A DNA stretch of 25,176 nt from a virus. The notes beneath the pieces were generated by a model. That model was given only the letters and a program-made list of their open reading frames with translations. It searched no databases and had not been told where the DNA came from. The stretch's first letter is position 1; each line of letters starts with the position of its first letter. The DNA lies in IMG/VR virus record IMGVR_UViG_3300032038_000604, positions 1 through 25,176 of that record; one strand, given 5' to 3'. The translations under genes were made by a program, and so were the position numbers. Of this stretch, positions 11,557 through 22,742 are shown piece after piece.

Positions 11557-11727
11557 CCTTTTTTCTCCTTTACTATAAATTTTTTTATTATAATATATAT
11601 GATTTCTCCTATACATATAATATAAAAAATTAGATTCTCATTTTATCTATTTTCGACCGTTGCTAAAAATTAAGATTTTTAAACTTCACTCTAATATTAT
11701 TTTTGCCAAAGCCTAAGGCACTTTTAT

Positions 11728-11756
11728 TTGAAAATTTAAAAAATTTAAAGTATAAT
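11728..11756 (+). promoter_or_regulatory. Sigma70-type promoter for the MVP-like gene.
   Basis: ttgaaa (11728-33), 17-nt spacer, tataat (11751-56). It is followed by the conserved tatat-acat/acaat-aaaaaa motif that is also seen at four other promoters in this window. Confidence 0.4.
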
Positions 11757-11799
11757 ATATACATAAAATAAAAAAATAAAAAGAAAGGAATAAATAATT

Positions 11800-20297: not shown

Positions 20298-22211
20298 ATG
20301 CCAAATAAGTTATACGATAAAAATAGCATACAAAGCCTTTCACCACTCGAATTTACCAGACTTCGACCTGGTGTCTACTGCGGCAGTACAGAATATTCAA
20401 CTCAATTAGTAATAGAAGTTGTTTCTAATGCTATTGATGAATTTAAAGCAGGGCATGGAAATCTTATTGAGGTAAAAATTGATACAATAGGCGATATTAG
20501 CTATATGGTTCGAGATTATGGACAAGGTTTTCTTGTCAATTCATTAAGAGAAGATGGAAAAACAGTTCTTCAGGCGGCTTTTGATACGCTTAATACATCA
20601 GGTAAATTTTCTGATGATGGTGTATATGAAGGTACCGCTCTTGGTTTAAATGGTATTGGTTGTAAACTTGTAAACTTCTTATCTCATAAAATGGAAGTTG
20701 AAACTTTCAGAGATGGAATGACAGAAAGCATCTTTTTTGAAGAAGGTGTTTTTGTTAATAGAAAAATTGACAAAAGCAAAGAACCTTCTGGTACATATGT
20801 AAGATGGCAACCATCAGAAGAATTTTTTACACATCAAAATGCAGACTTTAATAAATTAAAAGAATTATTTCATATTCTTGTATGTTTATGTCCTGGCTTA
20901 ACTATTGAATTAACAATAGACAATAAAAAAGAAACATTTTCATCAAAAAATGGACTTAATGATTTAGTTGATGATGCAGTAAGTGATACTGAAATTATAA
21001 ATTCTCGTATGAATATGAATTTTGATGCAGGAAAAAATAAACTTGATATGGTTCTTACCTATACATCAAAATATTCATTAAATATGATTTCTTATGTTAA
21101 TACAGGTGAAACTGACTCAGGTCCGCACATTACTCAAATTAAAACTATTATAACCAGAGAATTTAATAAGTTTTTTAAAGAGAAAAAATGGTTAAAAGAA
21201 AAAGATGAAAATTTAGGCGGCGATGATATTCAAGAAGGAATGTTTATTGCATTTAATTTAACTGCCCCTGGTATATCATATGACGCTCAGACAAAATCAA
21301 GAATTGTAAAAATTGATATGTCACCTTTCACTTTTGCTATTGCAACAGCTTTAAGAGAATGGTTTGAATCAAATGAAAAAGATATTAAACTTATTTTTGA
21401 AAAAGCAACTGCCGCACGAAAAGCAAGAGATGCTGCAAAAAGAGCAAGGGATAAAGCAAGAGAGCAAAACAAAGAAAAGAAAAATAAATTAATAAATTTA
21501 CCTACAAAACTTGTAGATGCAAATAGTAAAGATCGTTTAAAATGTGAGCTTTTTATATGTGAAGGTGATTCTGCTGCGGGCGGTTTAATTGAAGCACGAG
21601 ATCCAGAAATAGTCGGAGTATTCCCCATTAGAGGAAAAATGATTAATGCATATAAAAACAACCAAGAAAAAGTAATGGCAAATACAGAAATTAATAATTT
21701 AATTAAAGCAATTGGATTAGATTTAAATCCAAAAACAGGAAAATTAATTTATAATATTTCAAAATTAAGATATGGAAAAATATTTACTGCTTGTGATGCA
21801 GATCCAGATGGACAATCAATAAAAAATTTAATTATGTTAAATATATGGTCTTTATGCCCTGAGTTAATTTTAAATGGACATATGTGGATTACTATTCCTC
21901 CTTTGTACCGTATAACAAAAGGGAAAGATACTTATATTTATTTAAAAGACGATAAAGAACTTGAAAAATATAAACAAGAGCATAAAAATGAAAAATATTT
22001 AATAAACAGAAATAAAGGTTTAGGAGAGCAAAATAGTGAAGAATTAGAACCTGCTATTTTAAATCCCACTACAAGAAATGTTGTTCAAATGGTAGCCCCC
22101 TCAAAAGAAGAAGTAGAAAAAATGTTTGAACTTTTATTGGGAGTCGCAGTTCCACCAAGAAGAAAATGGCTGCTTGAACATTCTGAACAAATTTCAGAAA
22201 ATTTATGGTAA
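20298..22211 (+). CDS. Type IIA DNA topoisomerase ATPase/TOPRIM subunit, GyrB/ParE- or T4 gp39-like. 637 aa.
   Basis: RBS ggaggag. GHKL ATPase motifs: E...N in IEVVSNAIDE, and GLNGIGCKLVNFLS (the G-loop). TOPRIM motifs: CEGDSAAGG, PIRGKMINA and ACDADPDGQSI. The C-terminus has NRNKGLGE. Confidence 0.8.
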   Translation: MPNKLYDKNSIQSLSPLEFTRLRPGVYCGSTEYSTQLVIEVVSNAIDEFKAGHGNLIEVKIDTIGDISYMVRDYGQGFLVNSLREDGKTVLQAAFDTLNTSGKFSDDGVYEGTALGLNGIGCKLVNFLSHKMEVETFRDGMTESIFFEEGVFVNRKIDKSKEPSGTYVRWQPSEEFFTHQNADFNKLKELFHILVCLCPGLTIELTIDNKKETFSSKNGLNDLVDDAVSDTEIINSRMNMNFDAGKNKLDMVLTYTSKYSLNMISYVNTGETDSGPHITQIKTIITREFNKFFKEKKWLKEKDENLGGDDIQEGMFIAFNLTAPGISYDAQTKSRIVKIDMSPFTFAIATALREWFESNEKDIKLIFEKATAARKARDAAKRARDKAREQNKEKKNKLINLPTKLVDANSKDRLKCELFICEGDSAAGGLIEARDPEIVGVFPIRGKMINAYKNNQEKVMANTEINNLIKAIGLDLNPKTGKLIYNISKLRYGKIFTACDADPDGQSIKNLIMLNIWSLCPELILNGHMWITIPPLYRITKGKDTYIYLKDDKELEKYKQEHKNEKYLINRNKGLGEQNSEELEPAILNPTTRNVVQMVAPSKEEVEKMFELLLGVAVPPRRKWLLEHSEQISENLW

Positions 22212-22220
22212 GGAGGAAAT

Positions 22221-22742
22221 GTGCGGATGGAAACAAAAAATATATGTGAAGAATTAAGCCAAAATTTTATTGATTTCTCATATGAAGCCAACTCTTGTAG
22301 AGCCTTTGCTGATGCAAGAGATGGATTAAAGCCAGGTCAAAGAGCTTGCTTATGGGAAATGTATCATAAAAAATATTTTTCTAATAAACCTCATGTAAAA
22401 AGTGCAAAAATTGCGGGTGCGGTTGCTGGTACCTGGTGGCCCCACGGAGACACTGCAATTTATGATACTTTTACAAGAATGTCTCAAAAATGGATTAATA
22501 ATATTCCTGAAGTTGACTGGCACGGAAACAATGGCTCTCAAATTATCCCAGATGCAGCTGCCGCAGCAAGATATACAGAAGCAAGACTTTCTAAAATAGT
22601 TGAAGAAGGAATGTTTCAGAATATTAATAAACAAAATGTTAATATGATAAATAATTATTCAGAAGATGAGAAATGGCCTGAAGTACTTCCTGCAATTTTT
22701 CCAAGACTTATAGTAAATGGTTGTCAAGGAATTGGTAGATAA
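22221..22742 (+). CDS. Type IIA topoisomerase DNA-breakage/reunion subunit (GyrA/ParC-like), exon 1. The standard ORF ends at a TAA that is created at the intron junction. The likely exon end is 22736.
   Basis: RDGLKPGQRACLWEM matches GyrA RDGLKPVHRR. KSAKIAGAVAGTWWPHGD matches HPHGD. YTEARL is present. FPRLIVNGCQGIG matches FPNLLVNGSSGIAVG. The ORF then stops where GyrA continues with MATNIPPHN. Confidence 0.7.
   Translation: MRMETKNICEELSQNFIDFSYEANSCRAFADARDGLKPGQRACLWEMYHKKYFSNKPHVKSAKIAGAVAGTWWPHGDTAIYDTFTRMSQKWINNIPEVDWHGNNGSQIIPDAAAAARYTEARLSKIVEEGMFQNINKQNVNMINNYSEDEKWPEVLPAIFPRLIVNGCQGIGR

Follow-up and report, generated by a model that had tools for sequence, protein, structure and literature searches.

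In-frame TAG is avoided in early-type genes of a rumen phage family and is probably read as glutamate in its late genes

The analysed window, a stretch of 25,176 nucleotides, covers 25 kb of a metagenomic contig 39.5 kb long. The phage is a member of a siphovirus-like rumen phage family with a 3,048-aa tape-measure protein, the longest contigs of which reach ~130-146 kb. No close kin of the family was found in the phage collection searched, the best TopoB match being 33%. A binning hint to Ruminococcus or Clostridia MAGs suggests that the host is probably Ruminococcus or another of the Clostridia. The features of the window are as follows, with TAG counted in frame.

3..995, + strand, 3' part of a tail-fibre-like gene (whole, 428 aa), no Pfam or PHROG match; 5 TAG in the window part
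998..1026, + strand, sigma-70-type extended -10 promoter TTGACT-N17-TGGTATAAT, directly upstream of RuvC
1050..1538, + strand, RuvC-like Holliday junction resolvase (Pfam RuvC, phrog_827); 7 TAG
1592..2089, - strand, 165-aa coiled-coil protein; 2 TAG
2106..2360, - strand, 84-aa protein, downstream of the tape-measure gene; 1 TAG
2410..11556, - strand, tail tape-measure protein, 3,048 aa (PF10145, phrog_4211); 65 TAG
11728..11756, + strand, promoter TTGAAA-N17-TATAAT, without TG, upstream of the MVP-like gene
11800..14295, + strand, MVP-shoulder (vault-like) protein, 831 aa (Pfam PF11978); 0 TAG
14300..14330, both strands, bidirectional terminator-like hairpin after the MVP-like gene
14520..14548, + strand, promoter TTGTTT-N17-TGTTATAAT-ATATATACAATAAAAAA
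14589..16174, + strand, 117-aa protein (p117) and RNA ligase (Rnl; PHA02142 OB fold and RNA_ligase domain); 0 TAG
16267..16295, + strand, promoter TTGATT-N17-TGTTATAAT, overlapped by a terminator-like hairpin (16241-16270)
16331..17677, + strand, Zn-ribbon protein, polynucleotide-kinase-like (Pnk) AAA_33 protein and metallophosphoesterase; 0 TAG in all
17697..17728, + strand, terminator-like hairpin with T run, directly upstream of the holin
17757..17978, + strand, r1t-type holin (Pfam PF16945), 3' end overlapping the endolysin start; 0 TAG
17969..19564, + strand, endolysin (GH25, CHAP and C-terminal repeats); 3 TAG
19577..19650, predicted on both strands, two terminator-like hairpins after the endolysin
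19658..19686, + strand, consensus promoter TTGACA-N17-TGTTATAAT
19717..20262, + strand, RNase H; 0 TAG
20228..20256, + strand, promoter TTGAAA-N17-TGTTATAAT, within the RNase H 3' end, upstream of TopoB
20298..22211, + strand, topoisomerase II B-type subunit (TopoB); 0 TAG
22227..22736, + strand, topoisomerase II A-type subunit (TopoA) exon 1, ending in T; 0 TAG
22737..23976, + strand, intervening sequence, 1,240 nt
22953..23840, + strand, GIY-YIG homing endonuclease ORF in the intron (PF01541, E = 7.8e-9); 3 TAG
23977..25176, + strand, TopoA exon 2, running off the window end; 0 TAG

The Zn-ribbon, Pnk-like and metallophosphoesterase genes seem, with Rnl, to form an RNA-repair set. Eleven + strand genes or exons, from the MVP-like gene to topoisomerase II (MVP-like, p117, Rnl, Zn-ribbon, Pnk, phosphoesterase, holin, RNase H, TopoB and both TopoA exons), contain no TAG in 3,259 sense codons. 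If TAG were as frequent in them as in the contig's TAG-using genes (117 TAG in 7,351 codons), 52 would be expected, P(0) being ~3e-23. The first-pass annotation had described this block as ~3,900 codons with zero TAG, flanked by the endolysin; the absence of TAG is upheld, the size comes down to ~3,260 sense codons, and the endolysin actually sits inside the block. Out-of-frame TAG trinucleotides do occur in the TAG-free genes, so that TAG is not simply missing from their DNA. As a sense codon, TAG is used in the tape-measure, tail, baseplate, endolysin and intron endonuclease genes and in RuvC, which has the highest TAG density in the window (codons 19, 25, 55, 103, 130, 141 and 158), and the small - strand genes carry 1-2 each. 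These counts agree with the 1-65 TAG earlier assigned to the structural genes, endolysin and homing endonuclease. Two genes of the tail block are without any TAG, and the stops of the contig are 23 TAA, 3 TGA and 0 TAG. The genome is only partly recoded, its core replication and RNA-repair genes avoiding TAG fully.

Pseudogenes, assembly errors or rare standard-code read-through were also considered as the source of the TAG-bearing ORFs, the sole point in their favour being that standard-code ORF calling breaks up the left half of the window. This explanation is rejected by the data and retains a negligible probability. When TAG is read as sense, the tape-measure ORF runs through 3,049 codons and 65 TAG with no TAA or TGA, and shows homology in its N-terminal 545 residues, the part searched. 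The same architecture recurs in dozens of independent assemblies, and TAG positions are partly conserved.

The two coding regimes are kept across ~80 relatives, down to 53% protein identity. Among orthologues, TAG is absent from TopoB (49,347 codons), TopoA (~34,000), Rnl (9,634), Pnk (6,605) and the phosphoesterase (7,226), and the standard-code gene set has 0 TAG in ~140,000 codons; the NAD-dependent DNA ligase and PhoH protein of relatives are likewise TAG-free. The TAG-free state is nevertheless leaky in relatives, and the split is not strictly by function. TAG is borne by orthologues of RNase H (6/47), the Zn-ribbon gene (5/38) and the holin (3/12, the other nine being TAG-free), by a xanthine/uracil permease gene of L002 (1 TAG), and in L003 by a gene with a sub-threshold match to Thy1 (thymidylate synthase complementing protein; 4 TAG) and a free-standing GIY-YIG gene (15 TAG in 311 codons). 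The expectation that early and replication genes elsewhere would lack TAG is borne out for TopoB, TopoA, Rnl, Pnk and the phosphoesterase, and some RNase H and Zn-ribbon orthologues depart from it.

Conservation across the family also bears on a mosaic origin, in which a standard-code phage was the recent donor of the TAG-free block and there has been too little time for TAG to build up in it. The GC content of the MVP-like (36.7%), p117 (35.9%) and Rnl (34.2%) genes, higher than that of the tail genes (21-30%), would agree with such an acquisition. However, the same genes avoid TAG across 80 relatives, TopoB, RNase H and TopoA exon 2 have a GC as low as that of the late genes, and genes with and without TAG lie intermixed on a single strand (holin and endolysin; endonuclease inside TopoA). 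A mosaic origin is, on this evidence, very improbable.

The intervening sequence in TopoA (22737-23976) is probably a group I intron. Its exon boundaries, 22736/23977, are exact when compared with the intronless TopoA of relatives, and it splits the stretch ...NGCQGIG/ST..., which is uninterrupted in L002 and L003. The last base of the 5' exon is T (GGT/AGATAA...), that of the intron is G (...AAGTG/AGT), and AAGATATAGTC was seen by eye near the 3' end. The intron gave no Rfam match at the gathering score or at E up to 1, a result in which the large ORF may defeat the model. The TAG codons of this ORF are 36, 256 and 287.

Four promoters, those at 14520, 16267, 19658 and 20228, match TTG-N17-TGTTATAAT-AT exactly. 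The strict pattern has 5 matches as compared to 0.01 expected, the fifth being antisense and inside the RNase H gene. Of the five host-type promoters with a shared downstream motif proposed in the first-pass annotation, the promoters are real, but the one ahead of the MVP-like gene lacks TG, and ACAATAAAAAA shows no enrichment across the window (10 matches with no more than one mismatch vs 6.9 expected) and stands exact downstream of just two of the five. ATA(T/A)A right after the -10 element is the only downstream feature common to all five. It had further been stated that TAG-bearing genes have no such promoter, which is refuted by an equally good one at 998-1026 ahead of RuvC, and that promoter class tracks TAG class, which does not survive either, since the promoter type of the TAG-free units recurs before RuvC and, in relatives, before the tail operon.

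The RuvC promoter is the best conserved of the family (18/22 relatives), and that upstream of TopoB is kept in 44/78. In relatives, sigma-70-type promoters are conserved ahead of TopoB, RNase H, the Zn-ribbon gene and RuvC, and the counterpart of the 84-aa protein gene has a terminator and a sigma-70-type promoter ahead of it. One relative encodes a full sigma-70-family factor of its own, which means that use of these promoters may extend beyond the early phase and the host enzyme. Given this factor and the RuvC promoter, promoter class and TAG class are not coupled in the way first described; because such promoters also precede TAG-rich genes, the label 'early' is taken here from gene function.

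The lysis cassette is bracketed by terminator-like hairpins, and no sigma-70-type promoter was found after the hairpin at 17697-17728, i.e. ahead of the cassette. As first described, the holin is without TAG and the endolysin has all three of its TAG in the N-terminal catalytic region; they fall at codons 71, 76 and 124 (starts 18179, 18194 and 18338), within the GH25 domain. The endolysin carries TAG in 18/18 relatives, at 12.6 per 1,000 codons.

The amino acid decoded by TAG was assessed by an all-against-all comparison of 23 late-gene loci. The non-TAG partners of TAG were E in 43%, Q in 9.6%, K in 8.3% and D in 8.0%, and the log-likelihood for TAG as E was ~7,000 units above that for Q, the next best. 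E was a commoner partner than Q in 23/23 loci, and TAG was found more at Glu sites (4.6-22%) than at Gln sites (0.9-8.9%) in 22/23. Of 46 TAG sites from the source contig, 22 had E as the majority residue among relatives, 5 had D, 4 had K and 3 had Q; these sites are indistinguishable from true Glu sites and far from Gln sites (Fisher p = 2e-7, 3e-9). Conserved columns with TAG in at least two sequences were E in 16 cases, D in 2 and Q in 1 (p = 6e-5), the background conserved columns being E 42 and Q 42.

A similar pattern is seen within single genes. In the RuvC column IIM-E-EVRP, the Glu of which is a probable catalytic residue, GAA occurs 15 times, GAG once and TAG 7 times, and CAA/CAG never. 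E/TAG alternation is found in the GIY-YIG genes as well. Glu accounts for 7.9% in the TAG-free genes, as compared with 6.5% in the TAG-using genes if their TAG is left out and 8.05% if it is counted as Glu, TAG then making up ~20% of the inferred Glu codons. Judged from these alignments, TAG in the source lineage most probably stands for glutamate, not for glutamine as in code 15, and there is good reason to think that the phage family uses an amber-to-glutamate code. No description of such a code was found for any phage.

The crAss-like, Lak and phAss-1 phages use ordinary code 15, with TAG as glutamine. Were this so here, the pairing of TAG with Glu in alignments would stem from recurrent GAG-to-TAG mutation at sites tolerant of a Glu-to-Gln change. 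TAG aligned with E was explained likewise in the Lak study (PMC8346664), and code 15 is the only amber reassignment reported in the published phage recoding studies considered. The tRNA(CUA) of relatives also resembles the phAss-1 suppressor, Gln dominates the single informative TAG site of the L012 clade, and at p76 codon 59 (ORF position 62) the TAG of the source contig stands opposite CAA or CAG in 14/15 relatives. However, tolerance of Gln predicts CAA/CAG at TAG sites, and this is absent, as 16 conserved-Glu columns and only one conserved-Gln column carry TAG, and the RuvC TAG columns alternate solely among GAA, GAG and TAG. Asp often pairs with TAG (8-13%), as it does at Glu sites and unlike at Gln sites. 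Furthermore, the published code-15 phAss-1 clade, run through the same script as a positive control, returned Gln (Q 12-16% vs E 1-3%). Ordinary code 15 is accordingly an unlikely account of this lineage, and the Gln-favouring site of the L012 clade suggests that the code may differ within the phage family.

No tRNA(CUA), release factor or aminoacyl-tRNA synthetase was found in 34 kb of the 39.5-kb source contig, nor in 50 kb of a 133-kb relative with Glu-like TAG. A tRNA(CUA) is present in four loci of relatives (L011, L012, L013 and L046, on three or four contigs), which belong to more distant clades than the source contig. At these loci it forms a self-contained unit of sigma-70-like promoter, tRNA and hairpin, lying between RNase H and TopoB. 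The suppressor tRNA anticipated from the window thus exists in relatives, behind a promoter in the TAG-free block, with none in the 34 kb of the contig. Its mismatched 1-72 pair, G73, G2-C71 and G3-C70 are in common with the phAss-1 Gln suppressor, and these acceptor-stem features therefore give no pointer to Glu. It may be speculated that the tRNA(CUA) is charged by a host non-discriminating GluRS and escapes amidation by GatCAB, and, equally speculatively, that the missing U1-A72 pair and/or an extra D-loop base blocks this amidation.

The host presumably keeps TAG as stop, and the avoidance of TAG in early genes lends indirect support to a standard-code host. The TAG-free units, behind strong sigma-70-type extended -10 promoters, would be translatable under the host code at once, and a phage tRNA with anticodon CUA, of the kind encoded by relatives, would then accumulate. 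Before that, ribosomes would halt at the first TAG met (RuvC codon 19, endonuclease codon 36, endolysin codon 71) and yield inactive fragments. The outcome would be a translational gate independent of promoter class. Its effect would be greatest on RuvC, whose promoter is strong and conserved, and on the endonuclease ORF embedded in an early transcript. The lysis cassette would be gated twice, by the terminators and the lack of such a promoter, and by the need of the endolysin for TAG decoding. A partly recoded rumen phage with a translational gate and with TAG as Glu is the best explanation overall, at a probability of roughly 0.7.

The gate may also be without regulatory function, TAG being tolerated after the suppressor is present and purged from genes needed before; constraint and drift would produce such a pattern incidentally in an AT-rich genome. 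Selection for the gate is the sole point on which the two readings differ. In relatives, the sigma-70-type promoters of the suppressor tRNA units look constitutive and lie in the early block, so that suppression could begin early. TAG takes a fairly even share of the Glu codons in most late genes (0.17-0.39), the tail block holds its two TAG-free genes, relatives vary in whether their RNase H, holin and Zn-ribbon genes bear TAG, and the endolysin count is just 3. Against this, RuvC combines the best conserved strong promoter with the top TAG density (4.3% of codons, the first at codon 19) in all 22 relatives, homing endonucleases in or beside TAG-free genes are TAG-rich, as here and in L003, and the endolysin has TAG in every relative counted. 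The absence of function is a possible but rather doubtful reading.

The temporal reading corresponds to the model already published by Borges et al. (bioRxiv 10.1101/2021.08.26.457843), in which recoding times late and lysis proteins, and which includes lysis genes and intron endonucleases inside early genes. The finding itself is therefore not new; the window architecture is a clean family-wide example of that model and adds a lineage, not an idea. As in their gut phages, in-frame TAG lies in intact conserved genes, replication genes are standard-coded, structural and lysis genes are recoded, and the intron endonuclease in an early gene is preferentially recoded; their suppressor tRNAs are paralleled by the tRNA(CUA) of relatives. 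Unlike those phages, TAG behaves as Glu in the window family, and the TAG-rich RuvC owns a strong sigma-70-type promoter. RuvC is a clean test case, in which translation-level gating is separable from transcriptional timing.

What is new is the indication that TAG is glutamate in the source lineage. If so, phage amber reassignment is not confined to glutamine, and code-15 pipelines mistranslate ~1.6% of residues in TAG-using genes, including the probable catalytic Glu of RuvC; a public protein set shows Q at the TAG positions of this lineage. How a standard-code host inserts Glu at UAG would then become a concrete biochemical question.

phAss-1 (OQ749652; PMC10607447; proposed genus Phassvirus) has a genome of ~136 kb and a tape-measure protein of ~3,150 aa. 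It has tRNA(CUA) genes without a dedicated synthetase, and 28% of its ORFs contain TAG. It resembles the window family in genome size and tape-measure length, and common baseplate-protein motifs were seen by eye, whereas the replication modules are unrelated. Its TAG aligns with Gln, in agreement with PMC10607447, and that of the window family with Glu. Distant matches to the baseplate protein include rumen contigs from the same metagenome samples.

In T4, I-TevI and its relatives are encoded by a GIY-YIG endonuclease ORF in a self-splicing group I intron of an early DNA-metabolism gene. Translation of the T4 intron endonuclease is kept off during early host-gene expression, the delay being due to late promoters and sequestration of the ribosome-binding site. 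Unlike in T4, the proposed delay in the window phage would be imposed by in-frame TAG, and the intron class is one without an Rfam match. TAA and TAG are Glu in the nuclear codes of peritrich ciliates (table 30) and Blastocrithidia (table 31), and the amber codon appears to be read as glutamate in the window family too. In these eukaryotes, however, the reassignment is genome-wide and extends to TAA, whereas in the window phage it would concern TAG alone, in a subset of the genes of a bacterial virus.

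The window corresponds, in reverse orientation, to nucleotides 15-25190 of the 39,503-bp ENA contig ERZ27256903 k141_2707871, and a further 8,951 nt to its left (extension L082) was included, bringing the sequence analysed to about 34 kb of the contig. The left half of the window yields short ORFs when the standard code is applied; when TAG is read as a sense codon, the same half yields a 3,049-codon tape-measure gene and tail genes. The genes of the + strand block are as follows.

11800-14295, + strand: MVP-shoulder (vault-like) protein, 831 aa, first gene of the TAG-free block
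+ strand: 117-aa protein
14945-17677, + strand: RNA ligase (Rnl), Zn-ribbon protein (phrog_1257), AAA_33 kinase (Pnk) and metallophosphoesterase, grouped together
+ strand: r1t-type holin
+ strand: GH25+CHAP endolysin
+ strand: RNase H
+ strand: topoisomerase II B (TopoB)
+ strand: topoisomerase II A (TopoA), split, with a GIY-YIG ORF in the insert between its halves

Relatives of the MVP-shoulder protein in the phage collection are confined to the huge uncultured phages LR756500, LR756501 and LR756503 (38% identity). The genes of 14945-17677 resemble a cassette for repairing tRNA or RNA, in a phage dependent on tRNA-level recoding. Intronless TopoA genes read ...NGCQGIGSTIANVWLPH..., and the window copy is broken after GGT at 22736 and resumes with AGT at 23977, exactly the exon boundaries proposed by the first-pass annotation. 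The last base of the insert is G, and the exon/intron junctions of this putative group I intron carry the hallmarks of that class; Rfam gave no match in the window or the intron region.

The annotated phage collection holds no close relative of this phage, a megablast of 13.7 kb being unmatched and protein searches returning distant relatives only. About 100 related contigs were found in IMG/VR and other assemblies, mostly from rumen samples, the longest being about 130-146 kb. Of the relatives, one falls in the bin of a Ruminococcus MAG and one in that of a Clostridia MAG, a weak hint of a Ruminococcus/Clostridia host which agrees with the Gram-positive lysis genes.

The in-frame TAG counts of the first-pass annotation hold for every gene: 65 in the tape measure, 7 in RuvC, 3 in the endolysin (all within the GH25 domain), 3 in the GIY-YIG gene, 1-2 in the small genes and 5 in the partial tail gene. 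Every other + strand gene of the window has none. The TAG-free set stands, with about 3,260 sense codons instead of about 3,900, and the endolysin, described as a flanking gene, actually lies within the TAG-free block. Across the 34 kb, the TAG-using genes have 117 TAG in 7,351 codons, a rate at which 52 would be expected in the TAG-free set (P(0) ~3e-23). TAG never serves as a stop, the genes ending in TAA (23) or TGA (3). The TAG-using tail block also includes two TAG-less genes (L082 6055-6837 and 6852-7307, ~2.1-2.9 kb and 1.6-2.1 kb left of the window start, respectively), with a GC content of 37-38%, higher than that of their surroundings. One, with 6 Glu and 20 Gln codons, encodes a protein of 260 aa rich in Gly, Asn and Cys, and the other a 151-aa protein, neither having a Pfam match.

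Alignment of the window genes to 80 relatives establishes the two coding regimes as a property kept across the family. TAG is absent from TopoB (0/49,347 codons), TopoA (0/~34,000), Rnl (0/9,634), Pnk (0/6,605) and the phosphoesterase (0/7,226), and present in the endolysin of 18/18 relatives. Avoidance is leaky in RNase H (TAG in 6/47), the Zn-ribbon protein (5/38) and the holin (3/12). Two relative loci, L002 and L003, have no TAG in the genes for the NAD-dependent DNA ligase and the PhoH/PIN protein, nor in a TopoA gene that is uninterrupted. Adjoining such TAG-free replication genes, a free-standing GIY-YIG gene (L003 19197-20132) has 15 TAG in 311 codons, the highest density seen. The product of this gene has an N-terminal membrane and coiled-coil part. 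A gene of L003 with a sub-threshold match to Thy1 (thymidylate synthase complementing protein) holds 4 TAG, and a xanthine/uracil permease gene of L002 holds one.

The amino acid encoded by TAG was approached by codon-level alignment of orthologous ORFs; TAG was masked as X, and the alignments took in 22 late-gene loci besides the source contig. Where TAG is paired with another codon, that codon specifies Glu in 43% of cases, Gln in 9.6%, Lys in 8.3% and Asp in 8.0%, and the substitution profiles of the same alignments make Glu by far the most likely identity. Of the 46 testable TAG sites of the source contig, 22 have Glu as the majority residue in relatives, 5 have Asp, 4 Lys and 3 Gln, a profile like that of true GAA/GAG sites and unlike that of true CAA/CAG sites. 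Glu exceeds Gln as the partner in 23/23 loci, and in all but one of them relatives have TAG more often at Glu than at Gln sites. Among columns at least 90% conserved with TAG in at least two sequences, 16 are Glu, 2 Asp and 1 Gln, against a background of 42 Glu and 42 Gln conserved columns (Fisher p = 6e-5). Across 23 genomes, the RuvC column IIM-E-EVRP reads GAA in 15, GAG in one and TAG in 7, and Gln codons are absent from it. The adjacent E column and the NDD-E-ADA column follow this pattern, and the GIY-YIG genes display the same E/TAG alternation. By position and motif, the IIM-E-EVRP column is probably the catalytic Glu, a mapping which is inferential because PDB searches with the single RuvC sequence and with the family profile matched no resolvase. 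Counting TAG as Glu raises the Glu content of the TAG-using genes from 6.5% to 8.05%, as compared to 7.9% in the TAG-free genes.

When the same script was applied to phAss-1 (OQ749652) and four relatives, a clade published as using code 15, in which TAG is Gln (PMC10607447), Gln (12-16%) exceeded Glu (1-3%) and TAG lay at Gln sites, not Glu sites. The endolysin alignments, being of low identity, assign no amino acid to TAG, and neither do GH25 structures, among which Q as well as E occurs at one of the TAG positions. At the single informative TAG site of the relatives carrying the L012-type suppressor tRNA (L012 17393-17780, codon 70), Gln is found in 16/27 relatives, so the meaning of TAG may vary between clades of the family. 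In comparisons, TAG behaves as Glu, and we infer an amber-to-glutamate code in the lineage of the window, the most interesting result of this analysis. No description of an amber-to-Glu code in phages turned up in a literature search; the Lak study put some TAG/E alignments down to mutation of GAG to TAG, with TAG read as Gln (PMC8346664).

Neither in the window nor in the contig extension did ARAGORN find a tRNA. Four relative loci (L011, L012, L013 and L046) have a tRNA whose anticodon is CUA, about 700 nt upstream of TopoB and within the TAG-free block. There are two types, the tRNA sequence being identical in L011-L013. Each has a sigma-70-like promoter 25-120 nt upstream and a hairpin downstream, so that the check proposed in the first-pass annotation, for a suppressor tRNA and its promoter, comes out positive for those clades. 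A 133-kb relative has no tRNA in the 50 kb examined; a 138-kb relative has 14 tRNAs, including tRNA-Glu(UUC) and tRNA-Glu(CUC), and a tmRNA-like gene at L266 793-9058, with no CUA tRNA in that stretch.

Comparison with phage or model tRNAs gave no isotype for the CUA tRNAs, and the matches listed for a generic amber-suppressor DNA pattern were to unrelated phages, none from the clade of the window. Both types share a mismatch at the 1-72 pair, G73 and a D loop of 10 nt, and one resembles tRNA-Gln with one extra D-loop base. Bacterial GatCAB needs U1-A72 and does not accept a D loop enlarged by one base (PMC2811023), and these features would fit a Glu-charged, non-amidated suppressor. The mismatched first pair was rejected as a sign of Glu, since the Gln suppressor of phAss-1 shares it. 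The tRNA evidence does not decide between Glu and Gln, given this shared mismatch and the Gln-favouring site of the L012 clade, and the mechanism of Glu insertion at TAG is therefore speculation. One of the tRNA(CUA) genes of phAss-1, annotated at OQ749652 62445-62532 (L263 12445-12532), is 91 nt long by ARAGORN and of type II, its variable arm being long; it differs from its 75-nt neighbour and might carry a different amino acid.

The five + strand promoters claimed earlier, at 11728, 14520, 16267, 19658 and 20228, do fit TTGnnn-N17-(TG)nTATAAT-ATA, and a terminator-like hairpin ends each unit behind them; the strict form TTG-N17-TGTTATAATAT occurs 5 times in the window against 0.01 expected. 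The supposedly shared downstream motif ACAATAAAAAA is exact behind just two of the five, without enrichment. Nor is the promoter class tied to the coding class. TAG genes had been said to have no such promoter, yet TTGACT-N17-TGGTATAAT at 998-1026 precedes RuvC, the gene of highest TAG density in the window, and RuvC is delimited by a promoter and terminator like the TAG-free units. The RuvC promoter is the best conserved of the family (18/22 relatives score at least 13/15, versus 12/600 random segments), and in 17/18 relatives a promoter of this type also serves the gene that follows the tape measure. Equating these promoters with a "host, early" class also fails, because the TAG-free block of the 138-kb relative includes a gene (L041 3861-4931) for a complete sigma-70-family factor with regions 1.2, 2, 3 and 4, and the sigma-70-like promoters of the family may be read by a phage sigma factor. 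The lysis genes do lack such a promoter: this is true of holin and endolysin in the window and in relatives, and the cassette is bounded by hairpins at 17697-17728 and 19577-19650. One of the five strict matches, TTGACT-N17-TGTTATAATAT, lies antisense inside the RNase H gene (20058-20088, - strand); its RNA would run about 450 nt over the 5' end of RNase H and the RNase H promoter to the hairpins at 19577-19650. It is kept only in L018 and L017 (2/49 RNase H orthologues).

These arrangements suggest a temporal programme in which the TAG-free genes would be translated immediately by the host code, and the TAG genes would give truncated products (at codon 19 in RuvC, 36 in the endonuclease and 71 in the endolysin) until a CUA tRNA outcompetes RF1. 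Such a gate would hold back the resolvase and the endonucleases, which would be harmful if made early, and would tie lysis to the code switch. Passive tolerance of TAG by late genes, with no gate, would also be compatible with the sequence; RuvC and the endonucleases make it less likely, as they combine strong or early transcription with the highest TAG densities. The temporal reading of the first-pass annotation remains plausible apart from its promoter dichotomy, contradicted by the RuvC promoter and the phage sigma factor, and its underlying observation is largely upheld, with the size of the TAG-free set, the place of the endolysin and the promoter details corrected.

In general form, this temporal interpretation has already been published by Borges et al. 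(bioRxiv 10.1101/2021.08.26.457843), whose account covers the architecture, its connection with lysis and the recoding of the intron endonuclease. The present lineage differs from their system in the apparent Glu assignment of TAG, in a promoter class uncoupled from the coding class, and in being a family of Firmicutes siphophages from the rumen that has an early MVP-like gene and a cassette for RNA repair.
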